NCBI GenBank assembly: GCA_018645005.1
Contig: JABGPJ010000058.1
Coordinates: 30,965-94,964 of the forward strand
Reading direction: 5' to 3'
DNA: 64,000 nucleotides
Source: Deltaproteobacteria bacterium
GTDB taxonomy: Bacteria; SAR324; XYD2-FULL-50-16
The notes below the pieces were generated by a model. The model was not told the origin of the DNA. It did no database searches and saw only the letters and a program-made list of their open reading frames with translations. The translations under genes and the position numbers were made by a program. Positions 6,367 through 64,000 of the stretch are shown one piece after another (position 1 is the stretch's first letter; each line of letters begins with the position of its first letter).

Positions 6367-7164
6367 ATGAACAAGAGCTCAACGGCCAATCTGAACGTCA
6401 CTTTTCTGGGTTGCTCAAAGGATCCGATCGAAATTTTATATTCCTCTTCCAAGATCAGGCAATCTCCTGATGATGCCGCGAAAATCTGGCAACAGATACA
6501 AAGTGGTGAGATAACTCGAGAGGCCATGGTCAATTATGCGGCCAAAAATTTAGGGAGTAATTATCAAACCCCGCTGAAGCAGGCACAGTTCTTATTTGTT
6601 GTAGATAATATTAGTCAGATAGGCACCTCTTATTTTAATCGACAACAAATTGAATCAGACAAAAACAATATTGCCCAAAGTTACCTGGAGTTACAAAACA
6701 AGGATCAAACTGCTGTGACCCCGCCATCATTTCAAGTCAATCCCGAACTTTTAGAAAAATGGTCCAATCTGCAGACGGATATTGTCGCATTTTACAATTA
6801 CTGTCGTGATCAGGGCGTTGAAGCGGATGATGCAGGATTCGCTTTACCTCGAGGGCTCCGATGTCGTGAGCAAATATCCATGAGCTTCCAGACGATGCAA
6901 CGATTTCTCGATCAGAAAATGTGCGAAAAAATCCAGTGGGAAATAAATGAGTTAAGCTGGCAGATTTTTCAGATTATGAAAAAAGAATTTCCAACACTGG
7001 CGAAAAGGCTAGGGATAAAGTGCTGGGAAAACCGTAATCTTTTTTGTGATGAACCTCATCAAATATATGAATCCTGCAAATGGCACAGATCCAGACCCCA
7101 TAAAGATGATTTGAACAGTCTTTGGGCCAGGGAAAACAATTTGACCTCACAGGCTGTCATGTAA
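6367..7164 (+). CDS. ThyX-fold (flavin-dependent thymidylate synthase-like) protein with degenerate catalytic motif
   Basis: Aligns by eye to ThyX blocks. TPLKQAQFLFVVDNISQIGTSYFNRQQIESDKNNIAQSY corresponds to TPFEHxxFTFxVxxxxxxxxQxxRHRxxSxxxxSxRY. DAGFALPRGL...FLDQKMCEKIQWEINELSWQI corresponds to ARxxLPxxL...FLxxRxxxxAQWEIrxxA. Confidence 0.6.
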   Translation: MNKSSTANLNVTFLGCSKDPIEILYSSSKIRQSPDDAAKIWQQIQSGEITREAMVNYAAKNLGSNYQTPLKQAQFLFVVDNISQIGTSYFNRQQIESDKNNIAQSYLELQNKDQTAVTPPSFQVNPELLEKWSNLQTDIVAFYNYCRDQGVEADDAGFALPRGLRCREQISMSFQTMQRFLDQKMCEKIQWEINELSWQIFQIMKKEFPTLAKRLGIKCWENRNLFCDEPHQIYESCKWHRSRPHKDDLNSLWARENNLTSQAVM

Positions 7165-7305
7165 CCCCCACCTTAAGTCCGATACCCTCTTAATTATATG
7201 TCTCCGGAATCCGTGCTATTGAAATAGATTAGATTGTTGGTACGTTTTTTGAATTATAGTTACCAACTCGTTTTTATTCCAATCACCCCTTACAAAGGAG
7301 ACAAG

Positions 7306-7563
7306 ATGTTTGTTCAGGCTTTGAGAAAGGTGGCAACGCAATTGGAATATTTGACTCAGTACAGCATTACATTGGAACGTGCTTTGGATCTGCTGGAGAC
7401 GTCAACACAGGACCTGGAAGAGATAGTTGCCATCAATACTATGAGGGAAAGCATGGGGGAGCTGCATGATATCGTAAGAATCAGTAAACAGCTGGACCCA
7501 GAAATGATTTTTTCATCTGATATAACTAAGAAACAAACCACGAAAATTTTATACCATGCCTAA
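7306..7563 (+). CDS. Hypothetical small protein (85 aa from the internal ATG)
   Basis: The ORF track gives 7234..7563. The ATG at 7306 is preceded by a good RBS (AAGGAGA). No recognisable motif. Confidence 0.4.
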   Translation: MFVQALRKVATQLEYLTQYSITLERALDLLETSTQDLEEIVAINTMRESMGELHDIVRISKQLDPEMIFSSDITKKQTTKILYHA

Positions 7564-7630
7564 AACCCGGAATATCGTTTTCATAAACTCTATTTCTGCT
7601 AAGGGATTGATCATATAAATTATTTTTTGG

Positions 7631-8359
7631 TCAATCCTCATTCACGTAGTCAACTACCCTCTCTTTGAAAAACTTCCGCGCCTTCGACAGATAATCTTGG
7701 TCCTTGTGCTCCATCACAATCTTCACCTTTACCGCATCCCCTACATAACACGGGTACGAACCCAGCTTTAAATCAGGAAACTGCGCTAGTGTCTGTTCCA
7801 GGTATTCCGTAATTTCGCCTTCATCCGCAACGAGATTGATTTCTGCAACCGGATTGACAACCCCTTGAAACCGGTCTTTGATCAAGAGGAATATAGCCCG
7901 GAGAAATTCAGGCACACCAGGAAATATGGTTATATTTCTGAACTGTAAAACCGGAATATGTGGTCGTGAAGTTTTCAGCAGCATCGTACCCTCAGGCACT
8001 CGGGCCATACGCATATGTTCAGGCGTGCAATTGGCGCCATACATTTTTTTAATCCGATTTTCAATCTCTGTATGGGTAATCAACGGAACCTTGAACCCCA
8101 GAGCCAGACTTTCCATAGTGATATCGTCCGGTGTAGGACCGATACCACCGGAGGTAAACACCCAGGTGACCTGTCTGGAATACTCCAGGGCGATTCTGCT
8201 GATGATCTCTTTTTCATCGGGAATCGTCAGGCAATATTTAACGTTCACGCCTTGAGAAGCCAACTGTTTTATTAAAAAAGGCGAATTCTGATCCTCATAT
8301 CTGCCGGACAGGATTTCATCTCCAATAATAATAATTGCTGCTGTATTTTCCTGAGTCAT
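7631..8359 (-). CDS. CinA-like / MoCF-biosynthesis (molybdopterin-binding) domain protein
   Basis: IIIIGDEILSGRYEDQNSPFL... and TSGGIGPTPDDIT are hallmark motifs of the MoaB/MogA/CinA N-terminal domain. Confidence 0.75.
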   Translation of the reverse strand: MTQENTAAIIIIGDEILSGRYEDQNSPFLIKQLASQGVNVKYCLTIPDEKEIISRIALEYSRQVTWVFTSGGIGPTPDDITMESLALGFKVPLITHTEIENRIKKMYGANCTPEHMRMARVPEGTMLLKTSRPHIPVLQFRNITIFPGVPEFLRAIFLLIKDRFQGVVNPVAEINLVADEGEITEYLEQTLAQFPDLKLGSYPCYVGDAVKVKIVMEHKDQDYLSKARKFFKERVVDYVNED

Positions 8360-8514
8360 TTAACAATCCAAAAATAGGTAACTCACCTCGATTTCTCCAA
8401 CTACATTTCACAGTTCCTTTCATCTTGTCATACATGCCATGGTGGTCGGCCTGCAAACCTGTTACCTGGTGGCATCACTCTTCCAAATAACTCGCCCGGA
8501 CAGATCGGCCATGT

Positions 8515-8530
8515 TGGTTGGGAAATTGCA
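8515..8530 (+). promoter_or_regulatory. Candidate sigma-54 (-24/-12) promoter upstream of the beta-barrel protein gene
   Basis: TGGTTGGGAAATTGCA has GG and TTGCA at the consensus TGGCACG-N4-TTGCW spacing. Lies 83 nt upstream of the start at 8613. Pattern match only. Confidence 0.3.
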
Positions 8531-8612
8531 TGATATACCAGCATATGACCTACTATCGCTGGTTATATTATGTGTAATGCATCCTAGAGCAACATAATTA
8601 ACACGATTTCCT

Positions 8613-9689
8613 GTGAAACTCAAAAGATTTCTTTACATCATTTTCATTATAATACTGGCTCAGTCCGCTATTGCAGAGTCAAGAGGCGTATTGGAACGAC
8701 CTTTGATGATCGGGCCCCAATACCCGTTGATTTTCATGAGTACCGCTTTTGAACCAGACAGTGCCTTCCTGTTACCGGAAGGAGAGATGTTTTTTCAGAC
8801 CTCCTATTCTATCACTAACACTTGGGGACACAGCGACAATGCGATCAGGGATGAAAACGGCATCAACTTTAGTGAAACTGATTCAGATGGCTATTCTCTT
8901 TATTTTGATGGAGAGATCGAAAGACGCTTTTTAAAATTCCATTACGGTTTCAATGATTCAATCGAGTTTCAGTATATATACAGAGAGATCCGGCTCACTC
9001 CAGGAAGTCTGGATGGATTAGTTGAAAATTTTCACGAATCTATTAATGTCGGCAATGCAGGTAGAGAGAGTACTGCAAGGGATCAACTGGAGATTTATAT
9101 ATATGATAATAAGAACAATCGTATAGTGACCAAATTGACCCAACCCACTAACGATTTTCACCAGGAATCTATGCAGTTGGGTCTCAAATTTTTAGTCAGG
9201 GAAACGGCTAATGAGGCTATCTCCATTTCATTGACATCAAATTTCAGCGATCATTACATTGAAAGGGGGATGAACGAAGCGACGAGCGATGCACAGTCAG
9301 AAAAACACGTGGAGTTCAATGATTTTATGGCGACCATACGCTACACATCGATTTTCCCATTATGGACTCTTCATGTAGGATCTTCCATTGCCTTTGTGAG
9401 CGACACCTTGTTGGATAACTCTCCAGAGGAACTGTACTACTTTTTTGCAGCTTCAAATTGGCATATAACCGAAAACTGGGACCTTCTTTTTCAGGTTCTT
9501 GAGTATTCCAGTCCTTTTCCGAATGACAACAGATCCTCTTTAAGTGAAGATATCAGGGAGATAACCATGGGACTTCGCTGGTTAATAGGTAGTCAATTCG
9601 CGTTAGAAAGCGGTTTTGTTGAAAACCAGAGTCAGGGGCCCCAGAATATTGATATCATGTTTTTCTTCAATACCATGTTTAATTTTTGA
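8613..9689 (+). CDS. Predicted outer-membrane beta-barrel protein (possibly DUF3187-like)
   Basis: GTG start, signal peptide (IFIIILAQSAIA/ES), alternating beta-strand-like pattern, and an aromatic C-terminus ...FFFNTMFNF typical of BAM substrates. Confidence 0.5.
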   Translation: MKLKRFLYIIFIIILAQSAIAESRGVLERPLMIGPQYPLIFMSTAFEPDSAFLLPEGEMFFQTSYSITNTWGHSDNAIRDENGINFSETDSDGYSLYFDGEIERRFLKFHYGFNDSIEFQYIYREIRLTPGSLDGLVENFHESINVGNAGRESTARDQLEIYIYDNKNNRIVTKLTQPTNDFHQESMQLGLKFLVRETANEAISISLTSNFSDHYIERGMNEATSDAQSEKHVEFNDFMATIRYTSIFPLWTLHVGSSIAFVSDTLLDNSPEELYYFFAASNWHITENWDLLFQVLEYSSPFPNDNRSSLSEDIREITMGLRWLIGSQFALESGFVENQSQGPQNIDIMFFFNTMFNF

Positions 9690-45615: not shown

Positions 45616-46326
45616 ATGAAAGCCATGATTTTTGCTGCCGGGTTCGGCAAACGTCTCCAACCCTTGACATTTAAAACCCCCAAGGCTTTGGTGAAAGTAA
45701 AAAACCGGCCCATGCTGGATTGGGTGGTTGACAACCTGATTCATCATGGCATTAGCGAAATCATCATCAACACCCATTACCTGCACTCAAAAGTTCACTC
45801 CTATCTCAAGTCCAACCGTTTCTCAGTGCCGATTACAGTTTCTCATGAAGAGATCATACTGGGTACGGGATGTGGATTATACCAAACCCGTCAGTTCTGG
45901 AATGAATCCGATTTTTTCGTCTGCAATGTTGATGTTTTATGTAACGTTGATTTGAAGAAATTTTTCGAATTCCATCGAAACCACGAGGCGACAGTTTCAT
46001 TGGGAGTCAACAACCATCTGTCCAGTTCAATGCTACTCGTGGATGAGGCCGGTTTTCTGGTCGGTAGAAGTGTTGAAGGACAGCAGCAGCTACTCAGAGC
46101 ACCACAGGGAAAGACCTTTGAAGCTGGATTTTGTGGTCTTCATGCCATTTCTCCTGCTTTTTTCTCCGAAGTAACGCCACCCATGTCCTTTTCAATCATC
46201 GATGACTACATGAATCTGCTGAAAACAGGTGGTTCCATAATGACTTGGTCTATTGGAGATGCCTACTGGGAGGATATCGGAACAAAAGAGGCACTGAAAA
46301 AAGCGAATCGTGAATTTCCTGGCTAA
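45616..46326 (+). CDS. Sugar-phosphate nucleotidyltransferase (MurU / mannose-1-P guanylyltransferase-like)
   Basis: N-terminal AAGFGKRLQPLT (GxGxRL) nucleotide-binding loop. 236 aa GT-A-like NTP-transferase fold pattern. Confidence 0.75.
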   Translation: MKAMIFAAGFGKRLQPLTFKTPKALVKVKNRPMLDWVVDNLIHHGISEIIINTHYLHSKVHSYLKSNRFSVPITVSHEEIILGTGCGLYQTRQFWNESDFFVCNVDVLCNVDLKKFFEFHRNHEATVSLGVNNHLSSSMLLVDEAGFLVGRSVEGQQQLLRAPQGKTFEAGFCGLHAISPAFFSEVTPPMSFSIIDDYMNLLKTGGSIMTWSIGDAYWEDIGTKEALKKANREFPG

Positions 46327-54226: not shown

Positions 54227-55162
54227 ATGGTATCAAAAACACAAACCATTCACATATATTTATTGACCTATAATCGCCCCCAATATTTCCTTCAGGCGCT
54301 GCATTCGGTACTCAATCAGAATTTTGAAGATTTCCTGGTCATCGTTTCAGACAACTCAACCAATGATGAAACTGAAAAACTGGTTCAAACCATTCATCAC
54401 CCAAAACTACAATACATAAAAAGAACTCCCAGCACTCCCTCTTTAGAACATTATAGAACAGTTCTATCCGAAGTTTCATCCGAATATTTTATGATCTTTC
54501 ATGATGATGATATTATGGATCCGGATTGTTTAAGCATTCTGTCATCTGATCTCGACGCATCACCAACTGCCGCTGCAGTCGGTGGAAACGCGGAAATATT
54601 CTGGGATACAAAAAACCGTTTCAAACGACGTTTTTTCAAACCAGCGAAACAAAATCGTGTCTTGCAACATCCAAATGAGCTCGCTAAAATATACCTTACA
54701 TTTGAAGGGCTTGCTCCCTTCCCATCCTATATGTACCGCAAAAGCCTTATCAATGGACTGAATTTAGATCCTGAAGAAGGTGGCCAGGGTGCTGATGTTT
54801 CTTTTCTATTAAAAGTTCTGCAAAGAGGGGAAATTATTTGGGAAAACCGCTGTATCATGCAGTACCGAAAGCATCATTCTCAAGACAGCCAGGGCCTGGA
54901 CATCAAAGATTTGCTACAACTTTTAAATCACATTCATAAGAATACGGACGTATCAAGGAAATCATTCGAATCAAATTTTTTTCGATATAAGTCATGGGCA
55001 GGAGTACTTAAAAGCCAGTTCTTTCAAACTGGAGGCAAGTTGACTGACAACCGAATGAAAATGATATATCGAGCAATTTTCTGCTTTTCGCCATTCGATA
55101 TCTTTTTAAAACTATTTATTTGGAGAATCCGTGCAATCATAGCAGGAGTCAAATCCCGCTGA
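54227..55162 (+). CDS. Family 2 glycosyltransferase
   Basis: YLLTYNRPQYF..., VIVSDNSTNDET and FHDDDIM (DxD) motifs of the GT-A / GT2 fold. Confidence 0.8.
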   Translation: MVSKTQTIHIYLLTYNRPQYFLQALHSVLNQNFEDFLVIVSDNSTNDETEKLVQTIHHPKLQYIKRTPSTPSLEHYRTVLSEVSSEYFMIFHDDDIMDPDCLSILSSDLDASPTAAAVGGNAEIFWDTKNRFKRRFFKPAKQNRVLQHPNELAKIYLTFEGLAPFPSYMYRKSLINGLNLDPEEGGQGADVSFLLKVLQRGEIIWENRCIMQYRKHHSQDSQGLDIKDLLQLLNHIHKNTDVSRKSFESNFFRYKSWAGVLKSQFFQTGGKLTDNRMKMIYRAIFCFSPFDIFLKLFIWRIRAIIAGVKSR

Positions 55163-55370: not shown

Positions 55371-56453
55371 ATGAAAGTACTATATGTGGACTTACAGTAC
55401 GACTATGGTGTTAAGGAAAGAGGGTTAAACTATATCGGCCAGGATGGTTTTAAAAAAAACATTCAACGATTAAACCATGACCTGGACACCTTCTATTATG
55501 ATCGTTATCTAAACAACATCGATCAACTTCAGATAGATATAATTAAAAAGGCAAAAGAATTTGGACCTGATTTAATATTTTTCCAGCTCTTCTCCAATCA
55601 GTTTAGTCTAGAAACGCTAGATTATTTGAAAGGGACGTATCAGACAATAGCATGGTTTGGAGACGATACCTGGAGATTTGATTCATACACCAAAAATTTT
55701 GCAAATCATTTTACCTGGTGTATCACAACGGATAAATTTTCTATTCCTAAATACAAAATAATCGGTCAAAAAAATGTGATCCTCAGTCAATGGGCAGCAA
55801 TTGACTCTCATAAAATTCCCCAAAGAAAAAACAATTATCTGTACGATGCCTCATTTGTAGGGGGAATAAGTCCATATAGAAAATGGTTTATTGAAACGCT
55901 GCAAAAAACAGGACTAGAAATAAGCACTTTTGGTAATGGTTGGAAAGGTGGAAAAGTCACTCATGATGAAATGAATGAAATCTTTGTCAATTCCAAAATA
56001 AACCTGAATATCTCGAATAGTGAAAGTTATGACCTCAGATATCTTTTACATATACCCTTTAGATTTCGTAATGACTCATCAAACAATATCAAGGAAAGAC
56101 TTAAACCCTTAGCAGCAAAAATCAGGGAATGGCGAAAGATCATGATAAAAACCAAAGGAAGTAAAACTTACGGACAGATTAAAGCCAGAAACTTCGAAAT
56201 TCCATATTTCTCTGGCTTTCAACTGACAAATTATTTTCCTGGAATTGAAGATTATTTTGACATCGGAAGTGAAATCGTTTGTTACAGCGATGTTGATGAA
56301 GCTGAATTACTTATTCGATATTATCTTGACAATGAAAAGGAAAGAGAAGAGATCAAAAATAAATCCCATAGACTTGCTGTTGAGAAACATGGTTATTTGA
56401 ATAGATTAGAACCAATCTTGAACCAAGTTTTTAATAACCGGAAAAGGAAGTAA
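55371..56453 (+). CDS. CgeB-family / DUF3880-type glycosyltransferase-like protein
   Basis: C-terminal block KARNFEIPYFSGFQLTNYFPGIEDYFDIGSEIVCYSDVDEAELLIRYYLDNEKEREEIKNKSHRLAVEKHGYLNRL matches the Glyco_trans_1_2/CgeB pattern as I recall it. Confidence 0.65.
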   Translation: MKVLYVDLQYDYGVKERGLNYIGQDGFKKNIQRLNHDLDTFYYDRYLNNIDQLQIDIIKKAKEFGPDLIFFQLFSNQFSLETLDYLKGTYQTIAWFGDDTWRFDSYTKNFANHFTWCITTDKFSIPKYKIIGQKNVILSQWAAIDSHKIPQRKNNYLYDASFVGGISPYRKWFIETLQKTGLEISTFGNGWKGGKVTHDEMNEIFVNSKINLNISNSESYDLRYLLHIPFRFRNDSSNNIKERLKPLAAKIREWRKIMIKTKGSKTYGQIKARNFEIPYFSGFQLTNYFPGIEDYFDIGSEIVCYSDVDEAELLIRYYLDNEKEREEIKNKSHRLAVEKHGYLNRLEPILNQVFNNRKRK

Positions 56454-57409
56454 TGACAGATAATAAAAATAAAAAAATCCTGGTTACCGGGGCAAAAGGA
56501 ATGGTGGGACATGCTCTTGTTAAACACCTACAGGAAGAAAACTATAAAAATATTTTGGCTGTGGGCAGAACAGATCTGGACCTTACAGATTCTGCTGCAG
56601 TAGATTCGTACTTCGACAAATACAGACCTGATTTTGTGTATATGATAGCAGCCAAAGTCGGGGGTATTGCGGCCAATATGTCAGATCCGGTTGGGTTTCT
56701 CGTTGATAACCTTAAGATTGAACTAAATCTATACCAGGCCTGTCATAAATATAAAACGGCTAAGAACCTTTTCCTGGGAAGTTCCTGCATTTATCCCAAA
56801 GAATGCCCTCAACCCATGAAAGAGAATTACCTACTAACCGGCACTCTGGAACCTACCAATGAAGGATATGCTTTATCAAAAATTACAGGCCTGCGACTCG
56901 CAGAGTACTATTACCAGCAGTATGGAATGCTGACTGTTTGCCCTATGCCTTGCAATATATATGGTACCGGTGACCATTTTGATCTTCAAAAATCTCATGT
57001 CCTCTCAGCTCTTGTTAAACGATTCATTGACGCAGTTGATGAACAGACAAACAGTGTCACTTTATGGGGTACCGGAATTGCGCGCAGAGAGTTTATCCAT
57101 GTCGATGACGTTGCCCAAGCGCTACTGTTTTTTATGGAAACCCATAGTTCACCTGAATTTGTAAATCTAGGTACCGGAAAAGACATCACGATTCGGGAAC
57201 TTGCAGAGTTAATTGCAAGTGAGGCCGACTATCAAGGAAAAATAGTCTGGGATGAATCGAAACCGAATGGTATGTTAAAAAAATGTTTGGACATAACGAA
57301 ATTGGAAGCACTCGGTTTTACCCCGCAAGTGTCACTGAAAAAAGGCGTACAAAAAACAATTGCCGAGTATCGACAAATTAAACAGCAATTATCACGAGAC
57401 AATAAATGA
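56453..57409 (+). CDS. fcl: GDP-L-fucose synthase-family epimerase/reductase (Fcl; could equally be a ColC-type GDP-L-colitose synthase)
   Basis: VTGAKGMVGHAL Rossmann motif, PDFVYMIAAKVGGIAAN, LGSSCIYPK and catalytic YALSK. 318 aa. The start overlaps the upstream stop (TAATG). Confidence 0.8.
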   Translation: MTDNKNKKILVTGAKGMVGHALVKHLQEENYKNILAVGRTDLDLTDSAAVDSYFDKYRPDFVYMIAAKVGGIAANMSDPVGFLVDNLKIELNLYQACHKYKTAKNLFLGSSCIYPKECPQPMKENYLLTGTLEPTNEGYALSKITGLRLAEYYYQQYGMLTVCPMPCNIYGTGDHFDLQKSHVLSALVKRFIDAVDEQTNSVTLWGTGIARREFIHVDDVAQALLFFMETHSSPEFVNLGTGKDITIRELAELIASEADYQGKIVWDESKPNGMLKKCLDITKLEALGFTPQVSLKKGVQKTIAEYRQIKQQLSRDNK

Positions 57410-58578
57410 TTCCATTAATGAAAAATGCATTCCTTTATGAAACTCAAACAAAAAAGGAGTTAGCCGAGTTTATTATGACGGCATCTCGCTTAAGTATGAG
57501 CGATAAATGTCAACAGTTTGAGCAGGTGTTTGCAAAAACACAAGGAAGAAAAGATTGTGTTCTTTTCAATAGCGGAGGAAGCGCAAATCTGGCACTTATT
57601 CAGGCATATAAGAACCTTGGGGTCCTGAGTGATGGGGATAAAATTGGTTTTTCCGCTTTAACCTGGTCCACCAATGTTATGCCACTAATCCAACTGGGCT
57701 TGATTCCTGTGCCTCTTGATTGTGAGCCGCAGACACTAAATGTAATGAGTTACAACCTCAATGATCGTTTGCAGGAAACTGATTTAAAGGCTGTTTTTAT
57801 TACAAATGCATTGGGGCTGGCTGGAGATCTGGATAAAATCAGAGAACTGTGTATAAAAAGAAACATACTTTTGTTTGAAGATAATTGCGAAGCTTTGGGC
57901 ACCGTTTTATCAGCAACCAAAACCGGCAATTTTGGTGATGCCGCTACATTTTCCTATTTTGTTGCTCATCACATGTCTTCAATTGAAGGCGGATCAGTTT
58001 GCACTGATAATCAAGATTTAGCCGAAATGCTCAGAATTGTTCGTGCAAATGGGTGGGATCGTAATCTAACTTCAGAGCAACAGCATAAGTGGAGAAACAG
58101 GCATGAAATACAAGGAGAACTGGATGATAAATATACGTTTTATGATTTGGGATTTAATTTAAGACCCACTGAAATTACAGCATTTTTAGCATTAACACAG
58201 TTGAGATATTTAGAGGAAAACTGTTTAAAAAGGGAACGAATTTTTAAAATTCTTGATGCAAAAATCCGGGGAAATGACAATTTTCTTCCTCTAAATCATG
58301 ATCATATTTCCTTTCTGTCTGCATTTGCTTTCCCGGTAATCTGCAAATCCCCTCAAGTAAGAGATTATTACATCCAGCGGCTTGAAAAAGAGAATGTTGA
58401 AGTCAGGCCTGTCATCTCAGGTAATATTCAACGTCAGCCATTTTATAAAAAATATATCAAAGACGAGTACAAAGCACCCGGGGCTGATATGGTTCATGAC
58501 TGCGGATTCTACTTTGGAAATTATCCAGAGTTGACAGATGAAGACCTTGAAATTTTGTCCTCAGCGCTCATGAATTAA
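57406..58578 (+). CDS. DegT/DnrJ/EryC1-family PLP/PMP enzyme with His replacing the Schiff-base Lys: ColD/E1-type sugar 3-dehydratase
   Basis: The family fold is evident. The active-site segment ATFSYFVAHHMSSIEGG has His188-His189 (nt 57967..57972) where aminotransferases have SFxxxKxxxxGEGG. ATGA overlap with the fcl-like gene. Confidence 0.65.
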   Translation: MIPLMKNAFLYETQTKKELAEFIMTASRLSMSDKCQQFEQVFAKTQGRKDCVLFNSGGSANLALIQAYKNLGVLSDGDKIGFSALTWSTNVMPLIQLGLIPVPLDCEPQTLNVMSYNLNDRLQETDLKAVFITNALGLAGDLDKIRELCIKRNILLFEDNCEALGTVLSATKTGNFGDAATFSYFVAHHMSSIEGGSVCTDNQDLAEMLRIVRANGWDRNLTSEQQHKWRNRHEIQGELDDKYTFYDLGFNLRPTEITAFLALTQLRYLEENCLKRERIFKILDAKIRGNDNFLPLNHDHISFLSAFAFPVICKSPQVRDYYIQRLEKENVEVRPVISGNIQRQPFYKKYIKDEYKAPGADMVHDCGFYFGNYPELTDEDLEILSSALMN

Positions 58579-58757
58579 TCCTATTACAGAATCACTTCCT
58601 GAATTTGAAGTTTTCTTAATTAAGGCGAAAAGTTTGGTGAAACTGATCATTTTTTCCTCAATGATCATGGATTATCCCAGAACCGCTTATTCATTTCTGT
58701 CTGATTGAATTCATGTTTCAATTGACAGATTAGATTAATGAAAAAATCGGTATTAAA

Positions 58758-60155
58758 ATGAAAATCGTCTTAATATCAACTTCAATTGAAGATGTTCACC
58801 GCAGTGACACCATTCAAGAAAATTCACATTATCCCATTGGTGTCGCTTATTTAGTTTCGTGTTTAAAGCAAAAGCAGCATATAGTCGACACATTGTTTTT
58901 AAATGATTATAGCTACGATCAAAGCTTAAAAATCATTGAAAATAAAATAGAAACCTTTAAGCCAGATACTATCGGCTTTAATATACTGACGCCGAATAGA
59001 GTGAGCAGTTTTCAGGCAATTCACTTCATTCATACAAAATATCCGGATATTAAAATAGTAGTTGGGGGAATTCATGTTACTTTACTGTACGAACAGATAT
59101 TGGATTCATACGAATATGTGATTGCGGTGTTGGGTGAGGGTGAACTTACCTTCCTTGAGCTATTGGAAAAATTCTCAGATAACGACACCATTAGATCTGT
59201 TAAAGGGATTGCTTTCAAACAAAATGGGAACCTGGTCAAAACTGAATCCCGTCCATTAATCGAAGATTTAGACAGCCTCCCGTTTCCTGAACATAAATCT
59301 TTTTTTACACCTAACCGGACAACGGCTTGCCTGCTTACCAGCAGAGGGTGCCCATTCAAATGTAGCTTTTGTGTGCTGGACAGTATTTCCAGGCAGAAGG
59401 TCCGATATCGATCTGTCAGTAATGTGGTTGATGAAATCGAGTATTTGGATATAAATTTTCCGCAGTTGTCAACTATCTGGATTCATGATGACAACTTTTT
59501 GCTGAGTAATCGACGTGCGATTGAGATCTGTAATGAGATTGTGAACAGGGGGATTAAGAAGAAATTCATCTGTAGCGCCAGGTTCAAACCATTTTCCGTT
59601 AAACTTCTGAAAGCGTTGGAAACAGCTGGATTTGTGGAAATTTTATTTGGATTGGAATCTGGTTCAAAGAAGGTCCTGGAGCTGTGTCATAAGAAAATAA
59701 AACAAGAAGATGTCGTAGAAACAATATCCATCTTTAAAAACTCAACCATTAAGCCGATCTGTTTTTTAATTGTCGGATTATATGGTGAAGATGACAGCAC
59801 TATTAAAGAAACAATCCATTTTGTTAAAAAACTTCAAAAAATAAAATACATATATTTTGATGATATTGGTATTGCAATGGCTTATCCAGGCACAGAACTT
59901 TATGAGATTGCCCAAAAGAATGATCAGATAGATGACAGTTATTGGCTGACTGATAAGCCCACACCTATTTTTACTGCCGAACACAGTCAGGAAAAGCTAT
60001 TGTCTTATCACACGAAAATTCGGAACCATATTTCATTTAAGCGAATGTTCACCTTTTCCGGTTTTTTTATTCAACTGGCGATGTTGCCCCATAGCGCCCC
60101 CTATGTTTCCAGGAAGATATTTCAACGAATCAGAAGGAAAACAAATATGTTTTGA
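58758..60155 (+). CDS. Cobalamin-binding-domain radical SAM enzyme (class B, methyltransferase-like)
   Basis: The N-terminal ~140 aa is flavodoxin-like/B12-binding-type (MKIVLIS...PDTIGFNILTP...IVVGGIH). It is followed by SRGCPFKCSFCV (CxxxCxxC). 465 aa. Confidence 0.75.
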   Translation: MKIVLISTSIEDVHRSDTIQENSHYPIGVAYLVSCLKQKQHIVDTLFLNDYSYDQSLKIIENKIETFKPDTIGFNILTPNRVSSFQAIHFIHTKYPDIKIVVGGIHVTLLYEQILDSYEYVIAVLGEGELTFLELLEKFSDNDTIRSVKGIAFKQNGNLVKTESRPLIEDLDSLPFPEHKSFFTPNRTTACLLTSRGCPFKCSFCVLDSISRQKVRYRSVSNVVDEIEYLDINFPQLSTIWIHDDNFLLSNRRAIEICNEIVNRGIKKKFICSARFKPFSVKLLKALETAGFVEILFGLESGSKKVLELCHKKIKQEDVVETISIFKNSTIKPICFLIVGLYGEDDSTIKETIHFVKKLQKIKYIYFDDIGIAMAYPGTELYEIAQKNDQIDDSYWLTDKPTPIFTAEHSQEKLLSYHTKIRNHISFKRMFTFSGFFIQLAMLPHSAPYVSRKIFQRIRRKTNMF

Positions 60156-60366
60156 AGCAGTTAAATACTTAAATGGATTTCATCAAGTCTTTGAGTAAAC
60201 AAGGTGGCATCTCTAGATAGTGTCAAATATCCTTCGTTTTATTGCTAATTAGCCAATAAGACCTATATGGATTACCGCCTCACACGGTCAAACCTTTGTA
60301 AATCCCCCGGCGGAGCCGGCGGTTTAACAGTTGTAACTAACCTGAAAACCATAACAATAATAGTTA

Positions 60367-61221
60367 ATGATGAAAGAAAAACTAAATCAATACGCTGAAA
60401 ATATTACTTCTCAATACGGAGAAGATGGTATCATTAAATATATCATAGAGCATGCGAACGGAGACATTATTAAATCAGCATGTGAATTTGGTGCCTGGGA
60501 TGGGAAACATCTATCAAATATTTTCACACTCTGGCATAAAAAAGACTGGCGTGCCTACCTGATAGAAGGTGATCCACAAAGGCATAAAGATCTTGAAAAA
60601 AGCTATGGGCATCTACAAAATATTGATAGTGTCTGTGTCTACCTCACATCTGACGGGGAGAACTCTCTCGACCAGATATTTCTTAAAAATGATTGGGATG
60701 TAAATCTCGGACTTCTATCCATTGATATTGACTCATATGACTACCATATCTGGGCAGAATTAGAGCACGTCAATCCGCAAATAGTCGTTATCGAGTATAA
60801 CAGCCTGATTCCGCCTTATATAGATTATCACGATCCAAAAGGTGAGAATTTTCTCCGTTGTTCTATTAAAGCACTGGAAAACTTAGGAAATAAAAAAGGG
60901 TATAAGCTCATCAGTAGTACAGTAACAAATGCATTTTTCATCAAACAAGATCTGTTCAATAAGGAAAAATTTCCTGATATGCCCGCTGAATATCTATTCG
61001 ATTATGAAGGGAACAGAAAAAACAAGACACTTGAACCGGTAGTTGTCGGTTCTCAGCTTATTACGGCGTATCCGGTGTTTTCAAGCCCCCCCCCAACAAC
61101 TATTAAGGTCTATTACAATTTGAGAAAACTGGCCGCAAGATTTTTCAAAGGTGGTCCTAAAAGACTTCCCCCGTCTGACATTGTCAAGGATCAATTAAGA
61201 AAGTCAGGACTGTTTTATTAA
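60367..61221 (+). CDS. Hypothetical protein, possibly FkbM-like SAM-methyltransferase fold
   Basis: N-terminal SQYGEDGII and CEFGAWDGKHLSN resemble the SQxGED / xxGAxxG start of FkbM-type (Methyltransf_21) proteins. This is a weak assignment. Confidence 0.35.
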   Translation: MMKEKLNQYAENITSQYGEDGIIKYIIEHANGDIIKSACEFGAWDGKHLSNIFTLWHKKDWRAYLIEGDPQRHKDLEKSYGHLQNIDSVCVYLTSDGENSLDQIFLKNDWDVNLGLLSIDIDSYDYHIWAELEHVNPQIVVIEYNSLIPPYIDYHDPKGENFLRCSIKALENLGNKKGYKLISSTVTNAFFIKQDLFNKEKFPDMPAEYLFDYEGNRKNKTLEPVVVGSQLITAYPVFSSPPPTTIKVYYNLRKLAARFFKGGPKRLPPSDIVKDQLRKSGLFY

Positions 61222-61278
61222 TTCAACAGAGGTAAAAAAAATTACTTCTATTTCCAAAAAAATGAAGGTTATATCGAC

Positions 61279-62790
61279 ATGCATAACAGGGTTAAGAGCT
61301 TTTTTGGTGGATTGATCGTTGATACCCTGAGCTTACCGCTGACAATGTTTATCGGTATTCTAATAACACCACTTTTTTTCCGCTTTATTTCAGTTGCGGA
61401 ATTTGGTTACTGGGTCACCGTTCTGGACTTTGTAGGTTTTTTGTATATTCTAAATACGGGAATTGCCATCTATCTTGTTCAAACAATTGCCAAAGAGGCC
61501 ACAACCGGAATTGAAGATACCAAAGTTTCAATCAGTTCAGTGACTGTTTTTCAGTTTTCCTTAGTTATTGTGCTGCTGCTTGTATGCCTTTGTGTCTATA
61601 TTTTTTATCCTTCTTTTGGTGATCAGACAAACCAGTTTGTGGACTATCACTTTTTTATTGGATTAATGGGTATTTTTGTCGCCGCTAACGCTATCTGGGG
61701 ATGGCAAAATGGTATTCTTTACGGACAGAATAGAGTAACCCTATCAAACACTCTGGGGATGATACAAAAGCTTTTGATGCAATTGTTGCCGATCTCATTT
61801 CTTTTCATTGGTTTTGGTCTAATCTCATTCCCGATCTCATATATTATTATCAGTCTAATATTGGTTGTTTTATCAACCTTTTTTACGTGGAATTACCTTA
61901 AACAGCGGTTTTCTTTTTCATCTATCAGACGGGAGCGAATAAACGATATCTCTCTCTTTAATTTCAGAAGCATGATGGGTGGCACAAGTTATTATGTGCT
62001 TAATTTTACGGACACCATAATTATTGCAAATTTCTTGTCTTCGTCTAGCGTGACGGTTTATGTACTAACGATGAAATTGGCAAATTTCGCCAAGTTTATA
62101 CCCGGTAAAGTCATTTCTCTGGCTTTTCCCAGTATTGCGCAGTTGATCGCCGAAAAGAACTATGAAAGATTGCAGCCGGTTTCAATTAAGCTGTTTAAAG
62201 TTGGGCTTAGAATTGGTCTATTTTCAGGGGCAGTCATATTTTTTTTAAATGGGTTGTTTGTCCCCCATTGGGTCGGTTCAGACAAGTTTGGCGGAAAAAT
62301 GCTCAGCTATATGTCAGCAGTAATTTGTTTGCGGGAATCTATTGCTTTGTTATTTATACATATAATCTATTCAACCAGAGAGATTAAGACAATCAATTAC
62401 ATCCTTTTTTTCGAAGCCATCGCCAATATTATTCTCTCCATTATCCTTCTGAGATTTTTAGATATAAACGGGGTTGCGTTAGCGACTATTATATCGTCCT
62501 GTTTTCTCTCCCTTGGATATGCATGGTACAAGGCATCCAAAATTATTCATGCAACGAAATTCCATTTCATACGTCCACTGATTCACACAATAGTATACTT
62601 TTCACCGACATTCGCCATACTCTGGGTTGGAAGTATTCTTATTGGACATGATTTTTCCTGGATTTTATTTGTTGGGTTAGTTTTAATTGCCGGATTAATA
62701 AATGTTATTTGTTTTGAAGGAACAACAATTTACAAATATCGCAAACTGTCAGTCAAAGAAATTGCTTTCAAGGTTATTAATGAAGCATAG
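61279..62790 (+). CDS. MOP-superfamily polysaccharide flippase (Wzx-like)
   Basis: 503 aa with about 12-14 TM helices. The position within a glycan cluster and the typical two-lobed hydrophobic layout support the call. Confidence 0.7.
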   Translation: MHNRVKSFFGGLIVDTLSLPLTMFIGILITPLFFRFISVAEFGYWVTVLDFVGFLYILNTGIAIYLVQTIAKEATTGIEDTKVSISSVTVFQFSLVIVLLLVCLCVYIFYPSFGDQTNQFVDYHFFIGLMGIFVAANAIWGWQNGILYGQNRVTLSNTLGMIQKLLMQLLPISFLFIGFGLISFPISYIIISLILVVLSTFFTWNYLKQRFSFSSIRRERINDISLFNFRSMMGGTSYYVLNFTDTIIIANFLSSSSVTVYVLTMKLANFAKFIPGKVISLAFPSIAQLIAEKNYERLQPVSIKLFKVGLRIGLFSGAVIFFLNGLFVPHWVGSDKFGGKMLSYMSAVICLRESIALLFIHIIYSTREIKTINYILFFEAIANIILSIILLRFLDINGVALATIISSCFLSLGYAWYKASKIIHATKFHFIRPLIHTIVYFSPTFAILWVGSILIGHDFSWILFVGLVLIAGLINVICFEGTTIYKYRKLSVKEIAFKVINEA

Positions 62791-62847: not shown

Positions 62848-62953
62848 TTAGGGATCGATCATAAATAACTTCACATAATCTATTTGCAAAAGTCCCTAAA
62901 GCACTGGACATTTTGCAAACAGAATGTGAGCTAATTTATGAGCCGACCCTTAG
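62848..62953 (+). repeat. 106-nt palindromic repeat, copy C
   Basis: TTAGGGATCGATCATAAATAACTTCACATAATCTATTTGCAAAAGTCCCTAAAGCACTGGACATTTTGCAAACAGAATGTGAGCTAATTTATGAGCCGACCCTTAG. 98/106 identical to the reverse complement of copy A. Ends 15 nt before the GT10 start codon. Confidence 0.9.
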
Positions 62954-62968
62954 AACTAGCTGAGCCAC

Positions 62969-64000
62969 ATGACACCACTAGTTATTCTTGATTCTTCTCA
63001 TCCTTTAGTAAGACAGAATCGCTGTTTTGAAAAGTCTGAAATTGATGCTTTGCACGGCAATTCTTTTTACTTTCAATTACAACAGGAAGGAAAAAAAAGA
63101 GGGTTTGAGTTTATCACGGCAGATGAGTATCTGACCATGAGCCACTCGCCTTTTGCGCTTTGCGTAACTGATATGTTTTCACCTTACACTGAAAAAGTAC
63201 TAGAAAAAGGTGCATTCCCAGCTGTGTGTTCCTCTATGGAGTCACCAATTATCGCAAAAAAATTCTATCACCATATAAAAAAATATTCAGGTCACTTTCG
63301 CTACAACATTCAATTTCGTGGAACCCAGGAACGGTTTAGAGACCTGAAAACAGATTTTCATACTATGCATTACCCGGTTGAAAGACTTTTTCCCCCTTTA
63401 TCAGATACCACTTGGAAAAATAAAAAATATTTAACTCTTATCAACAGAAATAAAAGAAGCTTAATACTTGATTTTAAGGGTTTGAACGCTATAAAAACTC
63501 TGGCAAAGGTTGCTGTGTTTAAATGGTGGCAGTTGACAGATCCATGGATGAGATCAAGAGAAATATATGTAGACCGTATTAAAGCCATACACTATTTTTC
63601 ACAATATTCTGATTTGCACCTCTATGGAGAAGGCTGGGATGAACCCGTTTCAGGATTTAGTAAGAAATATCATGAAAGTGCCCGGAAAGCCTGGAAACAG
63701 ACACTGCCTTTTCGGGAGAAAAATCCCACATTAAACAAATATCGCTTTTCACTTTGCTTCGAAAACTGTTCATTTCCTGGATACATAACCGAAAAAATAT
63801 TCGACTGCTTTCATTCGGGTTGTATCCCTGTTTACTTCGGAGCACCAGATATTACCGACTTTGTTCCCAAGCTGTGTTTCATCGATTATCGGGATTTTAA
63901 AAGCTTTACACAGCTGGATAAATTTTTACGAGAAATGAGCGAAGAGACGGGAAAAGAGTACCTTGATGCAGCATATTCATTTCTTCAAAGTCCAGAGTGT
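62969..64000 (+). CDS. GT10-family alpha-1,3/4-fucosyltransferase (3' end beyond the window)
   Basis: Absent from the supplied ORF track because it has no in-window stop. My translation from the ATG at 62969 is open for 344 codons and contains YRFSLCFENCSFPGYITEKIFDCFHSGCIPVYFGAPDI, the FxLxFENSxxxGYVTEKxxDxxxxGxVPVYxG signature of GT10. Confidence 0.8.
   Translation, partial: MTPLVILDSSHPLVRQNRCFEKSEIDALHGNSFYFQLQQEGKKRGFEFITADEYLTMSHSPFALCVTDMFSPYTEKVLEKGAFPAVCSSMESPIIAKKFYHHIKKYSGHFRYNIQFRGTQERFRDLKTDFHTMHYPVERLFPPLSDTTWKNKKYLTLINRNKRSLILDFKGLNAIKTLAKVAVFKWWQLTDPWMRSREIYVDRIKAIHYFSQYSDLHLYGEGWDEPVSGFSKKYHESARKAWKQTLPFREKNPTLNKYRFSLCFENCSFPGYITEKIFDCFHSGCIPVYFGAPDITDFVPKLCFIDYRDFKSFTQLDKFLREMSEETGKEYLDAAYSFLQSPEC

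Follow-up and report, generated by a model that had tools for sequence, protein, structure and literature searches.

Two overlapping genes of an uncultured marine SAR324 bacterium predicted to form a ColC/ColD-type module for a GDP-linked 3,6-dideoxyhexose

Introduction

Two overlapping genes in a 64,000-nucleotide stretch of DNA from a SAR324 bacterium (Deltaproteobacteria bacterium, GCA_018645005.1, contig JABGPJ010000058.1, positions 30,965 to 94,964; the whole stretch is referred to below as the window) probably form a module of the ColC/ColD type. The first gene encodes a reductase of the Fcl family and the second a protein of the DegT fold, predicted to be a 3-dehydratase dependent on pyridoxamine 5′-phosphate (PMP). 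Judged from their sequences, they would together make a 3,6-dideoxy-L-hexose linked to guanosine diphosphate (GDP), most likely GDP-L-colitose (3-deoxy-L-fucose). The pair would very probably follow the colitose route known from Escherichia coli O55 and Yersinia, and thus represent no new kind of system; what is new is the joint phylogenetic split of such reductases with ColC, a residue signature that they share and the distribution of the module in SAR324. The features of the pair are as follows (window coordinates; aa, amino acids; NDP, nucleoside diphosphate).

56453..57409, + strand: Fcl-family reductase gene, 318 aa, ColC-like, predicted GDP-4-keto-3,6-dideoxy-mannose 5-epimerase/4-reductase
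57406..58578, + strand: DegT-fold gene, 390 aa, predicted ColD-type PMP-dependent NDP-4-keto-6-deoxyhexose 3-dehydratase, member of a ~391-aa subfamily
57406..57409, + strand: ATGA start/stop overlap of the reductase and dehydratase genes, an arrangement of translational coupling
57967..57972, + strand: codons CAT CAC for His188-His189, with His188 in place of the Schiff-base lysine

Both open reading frames (ORFs), 56453-57409 and 57406-58578, and the two histidine codons, 188 and 189 of the dehydratase, lie where an earlier reading of this DNA from its letters (the sequence-only reading) had placed them. The ATGA overlap that it described, with the dehydratase ATG at 57406-57408 and the reductase TGA at 57407-57409, is also genuine. 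Gene callers start the dehydratase at Met5 (386 aa, P0001); the N-terminus MIPLMKNAF is kept in relatives across many phyla, and therefore the ATG at 57406 and the overlap are real. Additional to that overlap is a second one, since the upstream Glyco_trans_1_2 gene (55371-56453) shares one base with the start of the reductase gene (TAATG).

The dehydratase is a histidine-type enzyme without an iron-sulfur motif

The dehydratase has the DegT/DnrJ/EryC1 fold, that of fold-type-I aminotransferases (PF01041, 193.5 bits, residues 16-383), and its closest relatives of solved structure are ColD (2gms, 167 bits), E1 (3bcx, 144 bits) and GDP-perosamine synthase (106 bits). The match to ColD 2gms extends over residues 21-379 with E = 3.8e-48, and sequence similarity at this level (E = 4e-48) settles the fold, which is the same as that of ColD (WbdK) of E. 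coli O55/O111 and Yersinia pseudotuberculosis (PDB 2gms, 2gmu, 2r0t, 3b8x, 3gr9). When aligned with HMMER, the dehydratase reads tfsyfvAHHmssiegg opposite tfssfySHHiatmegg of E. coli ColD (PDB 2gms), so that A187-H188-H189 stands against S187-H188-H189. The engineered ColD variants H188K (2r0t, ...sKh...) and H188N (3b8x, ...sNh...) fall in the same column, which identifies the first histidine of the dehydratase with the catalytic His188 position. Histidine occupies this Schiff-base column in 141 of 143 aligned sequences, lysine being confined to an aminotransferase paralogue from the same genome, and the register of the alignment is thus no artefact. A lysine at the true Schiff-base position, which would have spoken against the sequence-only reading, is therefore not present in the dehydratase.

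Enzymes of the E1 and SpnQ type bear a four-cysteine [2Fe-2S] motif and require a reductase, whereas ColD is free of the cluster, releases its enamine hydrolytically and has its PMP regenerated from glutamate (review PMC8987622). The motif, C-X57-C-X-C-X7-C, is carried by the E1-like proteins of the same genome (e.g. RDWGRDCYCSSGENNTC), and it is absent from the dehydratase, from 12 of 12 sampled members of its subfamily and from 7 of 7 ColD; in all of these the second to fourth cysteines are replaced by Arg, Leu and a gap (GWDRNL). This absence makes the dehydratase ColD-type rather than E1-type, and by the same token no E3 reductase should be needed. The sequence-only reading had proposed a 3-dehydratase of the ColD/E1 type; its histidine character is borne out, and the missing iron-sulfur motif narrows the assignment to ColD.

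Further features shared with ColD include the length (388-390 aa in ColD, 390 aa here) and the sequence blocks GW(D/T)RNL and ExRP(I/V)xxGN, as well as the position of the gene directly downstream of, and overlapping, an Fcl-family reductase gene. The two differ in residue 187 (Ser in ColD, Ala here) and belong to separate sister subfamilies. With E1 (RfbH/DdhC/AscC) the dehydratase has in common that it is a His-type, PMP-dependent 3-dehydratase, and the RfbH model NF011936 is its best match in NCBIfam, at 222.4 bits under the cut-off of 423; unlike E1, it lacks the N-terminal extension together with the cysteine motif, and the two stand apart in the tree. This tree, calculated from 92 sequences with support values from the Shimodaira-Hasegawa-like approximate likelihood ratio test (SH-aLRT), separates an E1-like clade (95-97) from an iron-sulfur-free clade, which comprises a clade of characterised ColD (99) and, as its sister, a large clade (97). 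The dehydratase falls inside the latter, within the ~391-aa subfamily (99), and hence among the His-type 3-dehydratases and not among bona fide aminotransferases, the placement that would have contradicted the sequence-only reading. A ColD-type mechanism class is thus well supported by sequence, although such a class does not amount to orthology with ColD, and it is the genomic context that suggests a preference for GDP-sugars.

Members of the ~391-aa subfamily are 61-65% identical across phyla. Their public names are CDP-6-deoxy-D-xylo-4-hexulose-3-dehydrase (CDP, cytidine diphosphate), UDP-4-amino-4-deoxy-L-arabinose aminotransferase (ArnB; UDP, uridine diphosphate) or generic DegT, and are inconsistent and probably wrong.

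The reductase groups with ColC

The sequence-only reading had assigned the first gene to the Fcl family, and this agrees with its scores of 383.6 bits on the Fcl equivalog model NF047922, its best-matching family model, and 268 bits against E. coli Fcl (1e6u). The former value lies under the threshold of the model (500 bits), as do those of the characterised ColC proteins of E. coli O55 and Yersinia similis (304-316 bits). The catalytic residues of E. coli GDP-fucose synthase, which we take to be S107, C109, Y136, K140 and H179, align with Ser110, Cys112, Tyr139, Lys143 and His182 of the reductase, and all five are kept. This same set, the extended short-chain dehydrogenase/reductase (SDR) architecture of the Fcl family and the location of the gene upstream of a dehydratase gene are likewise shared with ColC. 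The identity of the reductase amounts to 41-45% with Fcl (WcaG/GMER) and 37-39% with ColC.

For the phylogeny, phmmer-verified ORFs of ColD-partnered reductases were set against 48 canonical Fcl taken from SAR324 and Pseudomonadota. Six reductases encoded upstream of subfamily dehydratases, referred to here as type I partners, form one clade with support 100/96; they derive from the window, a Leptospira metagenome-assembled genome, a contig annotated as Argoarchaeum, a Parvicella contig and two metagenome contigs. Characterised ColC and four further dehydratase partners form a second clade (100/100), and the 12 ColD-partnered reductases of both clades are found on one side of a split from the 48 canonical Fcl (100/95.9). 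Note that this link between type I partners and ColC was resolved with 48 canonical Fcl in the tree and not with few. The comparison of the two proteins with characterised homologues that the sequence-only reading had proposed thus groups the reductase with ColC, apart from canonical Fcl. Its type I subclade is sister to the classic ColC clade, and its stem is far shorter than that of the latter.

The reductase also deviates from Fcl where 60 canonical sequences show 97-100% conservation. In E. coli Fcl numbering, T164 is Thr in 59/60 canonical enzymes and Cys in 10/11 ColD-partnered reductases; N172 is Asn in 58/60 and replaced in 11/11; and L212 is Leu in 59/60 and Met or Ile in 10/11. Like ColC, the window reductase has Cys at T164, has lost N172 and carries Met/Ile at L212; it reads MPCNIYGTGDHF (MPCN...DHF) opposite MPTNLYGxxDNF of Fcl, and the ColD-partnered reductases as a group show the signature PCN...D[KSH]F where Fcl has PTN...DNF. 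Two residues of its own, F289 and I303, replace a Trp and a Tyr kept in both Fcl and ColC. The Leptospira genome contains both a canonical Fcl and a ColD-partnered reductase. If validated, the signature could help genome annotation to tell colitose synthases and fucose synthases apart.

These results bear on the reading in which no dideoxy module would exist and the two genes would encode a second ordinary GDP-fucose synthase and an aminotransferase-like enzyme for a 4-amino sugar, e.g., GDP-perosamine. Such a reading could appeal to the complete set of Fcl catalytic residues in the reductase, to its 41-45% identity with Fcl and to the rank of GDP-perosamine synthases as third among the solved relatives of the dehydratase. 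We consider it highly improbable, as the dehydratase has no lysine to form an internal aldimine, in common with nearly all of its aligned relatives (His in 141/143), while the reductase scores 383 against an Fcl cut-off of 500, groups with ColC and is accompanied in the genome by a canonical Fcl (485 bits).

Precursor genes are encoded elsewhere in the genome

The GDP-mannose 4,6-dehydratase Gmd, which the sequence-only reading had noted to be outside the window, is encoded at C68:26542-27633 of this assembly and scores 606 bits on TIGR01472, above the cut-off; the genome search that this reading had suggested also revealed ManC (C11:41487-42920; 390 bits to Yersinia ManC), each on another contig. 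A separate canonical Fcl is found at C8:7320-8246 (485 bits on NF047922), within the range of 470-509 bits seen for canonical Fcl in about half of 88 SAR324 species. Of the two options left by the sequence-only reading, a dideoxy sugar in place of fucose or in addition to it, the combination of Gmd, ManC and a separate canonical Fcl favors the second: colitose would come in addition to fucose. A nucleotidyltransferase inside the window (45616-46326) was considered as a substitute for ManC and rejected, being MurU-like, below cut-off and separated from the pair by unrelated genes, with the real ManC on C11.

The route proposed for the pair is modelled on the biochemistry of ColD and ColC. ManC and then Gmd would supply GDP-4-keto-6-deoxy-D-mannose. 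With His188 standing in place of the lysine, the dehydratase would bind PMP and make no internal aldimine; PMP would form a Schiff base with the 4-keto sugar, after which His188 would take the C4′ proton and the 3-OH would be expelled. In the absence of a [2Fe-2S] cluster, the resulting enamine would be hydrolysed to GDP-4-keto-3,6-dideoxy-D-mannose and ammonia, and PMP would be regenerated from glutamate. The reductase would then epimerise C5 with Cys112 and His182 as an acid-base pair and reduce C4 with NAD(P)H (reduced nicotinamide adenine dinucleotide, or its phosphate) by means of Ser110, Tyr139 and Lys143, giving GDP-L-colitose. Finally, a GT10 enzyme and other glycosyltransferases (GTs) of the surrounding island would attach the sugar to a glycan exported by Wzx.

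Some further genes were observed on other contigs of the genome. At C8:7320-9255, the canonical Fcl precedes a 313-aa SDR that belongs to the GDP-mannose-dehydratase superfamily (82 bits to the Gmd model) and could be a GDP-6-deoxy-sugar reductase similar to Rmd. On C68 (26542-36735), Gmd adjoins a complete-looking cluster of the CDP-3,6-dideoxyhexose/yersiniose type, with a small reductase resembling FNR, an E1/RfbH-like enzyme that bears the iron-sulfur motif, RfbF, RfbG, a pair of acetaldehyde dehydrogenase and aldolase, an SDR and a YerE-like enzyme dependent on thiamine diphosphate (ThDP). Given this cluster beside Gmd, the genome may encode the synthesis of two dideoxy sugars, one linked to GDP and the other to CDP, as in Yersinia O:6-type strains. 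At C94:13013-14725 lies the gene for another E1-like dehydratase of the His type, which has the CxC-x7-C cysteines and brings the His-type sugar 3-dehydratases of the genome to three overall.

Related loci in other phyla

In E. coli O55 (locus L023), colC (7081-8004) and colD (8001-9167) overlap by 4 bases, and in Yersinia similis colC is directly upstream of colD with an overlap of 8 bases. In seven of eight loci fetched for the subfamily, the gene next to the dehydratase gene on its upstream side encodes the reductase, and a 4-base overlap of reductase and dehydratase is recorded for L022, L034, L035 and L036. In L014 (Patescibacteria), the sole Fcl is 3.5 kb from the dehydratase gene, beside Gmd. 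The fetched flanks contain Gmd in 5/8 loci, a GT10 or GT11 gene in 4/8 (L021, L022, L034 and L036, in each case near the pair) and Glyco_trans_1_2 in 3/8 (L036, L035 and L022, where it adjoins or lies near the pair). The Parvicella contig L036 even repeats the gene order of the window: GT2, Glyco_trans_1_2, reductase, dehydratase, Wzx and GT10. Colitose-type modules appear to occur in Leptospira, Elusimicrobia, Patescibacteria, Bacteroidota and one archaeal contig, far beyond the few serotypes of enterobacteria, Yersinia and Vibrio studied so far.

In L022, L035, L036 and L024 (Yersinia similis), the pair is accompanied by genes for a YerE-like ThDP enzyme, an SDR and an E1-like protein. This company recurs in lineages that are not related to one another, among them a contig with an archaeal annotation, and mirrors the combined colitose and yersiniose locus of Yersinia.

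The frequent presence of RfbF/RfbG/RfbH-like and YerE-like ThDP genes beside the subfamily (L022, L035, L036), together with the CDP-sugar cluster on C68, might be taken to mean that the dehydratase is an iron-sulfur-free, glutamate-driven CDP-4-keto-6-deoxy-D-glucose 3-dehydratase of a CDP-dideoxyhexose or yersiniose-like pathway. We regard this as very improbable: every such CDP cluster has its own E1-like enzyme with the iron-sulfur motif, the dehydratase is translationally coupled to a reductase from the Fcl/ColC family, in which the characterised enzymes act on GDP-sugars, and in the present genome the pair and the CDP cluster are on different contigs.

Points against the assignment and the question of the substrate

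Several observations weigh against the assignment of the pair to GDP-L-colitose synthesis. The dehydratase is situated outside the characterised ColD clade, in a sister subfamily of the same iron-sulfur-free clade; by BLASTP it is 29-30% identical to characterised ColD and 31% identical to the E1-like protein of its own genome, and more than 150 clusters (at 50% identity), almost all with His in the catalytic column, are nearer to it than ColD is, none of them characterised. The three-residue signature of the reductase (T164, N172 and L212) is a proposal first derived in the present analysis. Gmd and ManC are unlinked to the pair in the present assembly; the organism has not been cultured, and its genome is 68% complete. 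Moreover, a GDP-heptose is the substrate of Campylobacter jejuni enzymes that share 62-67% identity with ColD (PMC10440746).

Members of the ColD clade thus take a heptose substrate in C. jejuni (PMC10440746), and the dehydratase might correspondingly use GDP-6-deoxy-4-keto-D-lyxo-heptose to form a 3,6-dideoxy-heptose, as in serotypes HS:5 and HS:11. In favor of this option, two genes lie near the pair in locus L021, one for a GHMP kinase weakly similar to HddA and one for a nucleotidyltransferase. This kinase, however, reaches 162 bits against a cut-off of 600, and a search of the SAR324 genome for a homologue of it found none. Gmd of this genome is a canonical GDP-mannose 4,6-dehydratase (606 bits), and C. 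jejuni employs a separate cupin epimerase and a reductase, with no Fcl-type enzyme (PMC10440746). A heptose substrate therefore seems quite unlikely, and GDP-L-colitose remains our preferred product.

The assignment would give a specific function to two genes whose public labels are generic or probably wrong (DegT aminotransferase, CDP-hexulose dehydrase, ArnB). It also leads to the prediction that an uncultured marine SAR324 lineage adds a 3,6-dideoxy sugar, besides fucose, to its surface glycan.

Neighborhood of the pair

The pair is part of an island (54-64 kb of the window) in which the following further features were found (SAM, S-adenosyl-L-methionine).

54227..55162, + strand: GT2 glycosyltransferase gene (PF00535), with a homologue in the same relative position in L036
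55209..55313, strand not assigned: left copy of a 105-nt repeat, direct, 80% identical to the right copy
55371..56453, + strand: gene for a Glyco_trans_1_2 family protein (PF13524, 78.7 bits), a conserved neighbor of the pair
58758..60155, + strand: gene for a cobalamin-binding radical SAM enzyme, class B (PF02310 and PF04055), with homologues in L022 and L035
60367..61221, + strand: gene for a 284-aa protein between the radical SAM gene and Wzx, no family match
61279..62790, + strand: Wzx-type flippase gene (PF01943; NF041503)
62848..62952, strand not assigned: right copy of the 105-nt repeat, 80% identical to the left copy
62969..64000, + strand, continuing beyond the window (374 aa in full): gene for a glycosyltransferase of the GT10 (fucosyltransferase) family (PF00852, 64 bits)

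The GT10 protein (62969-64000) is a candidate colitosyl or fucosyl transferase. The two repeats flank six genes, from Glyco_trans_1_2 to Wzx (55371-62790), and the GC content of the island is 33-40%, compared with 44% for the genome. The ~391-aa subfamily is present in one of 88 SAR324 species genomes, the present one, the next best match being 38% identical. This single carrier, the low GC content and the flanking repeats together indicate that the cassette is accessory and was probably acquired horizontally.

The class-B radical SAM enzyme (58758-60155) might possibly serve in sugar or glycan tailoring. A second cobalamin-binding radical SAM gene belongs to the same glycan cluster and lies just beyond the end of the window (C115:95292-96767). 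The 284-aa protein (60367-61221) gave no match in Pfam or NCBIfam even at E <= 0.1.

With such neighbors, the GDP-3,6-dideoxy sugar could be tailored further, e.g., C-methylated by one or both of the radical SAM enzymes, giving a modified colitose that has so far not been described. Pointing in this direction are the position of the first radical SAM gene directly after the dehydratase gene and of the second just outside the window, the recurrence of homologues in the clusters of L022, L035 and L018 (two in the last), and the orphan gene lodged between the radical SAM gene and Wzx. Against it, a radical SAM gene occurs in just 2/8 other subfamily loci, these loci also carry CDP-sugar and YerE-like genes that are possible true partners, and the best NCBIfam matches of the enzyme are generic, so that its sequence assigns no substrate; on balance we think tailoring of this kind unlikely. 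With a similarly low probability, the subfamily and its type I reductase would not be isofunctional with ColD and ColC at all, and would make a different or modified GDP-3,6-dideoxyhexose with the help of the radical SAM enzyme(s) and the 284-aa orphan. If this were true, an undescribed surface sugar, for instance a C-methylated colitose or another stereoisomer, would be carried across bacterial and archaeal phyla by a horizontally mobile cassette.

Finally, another SAR324 genome (G087:C54:2377-4405) has a 38%-identical ColD-like gene beside an Fcl-like frame with three in-frame TGA codons, which could reflect a pseudogene, a sequencing problem or recoding.

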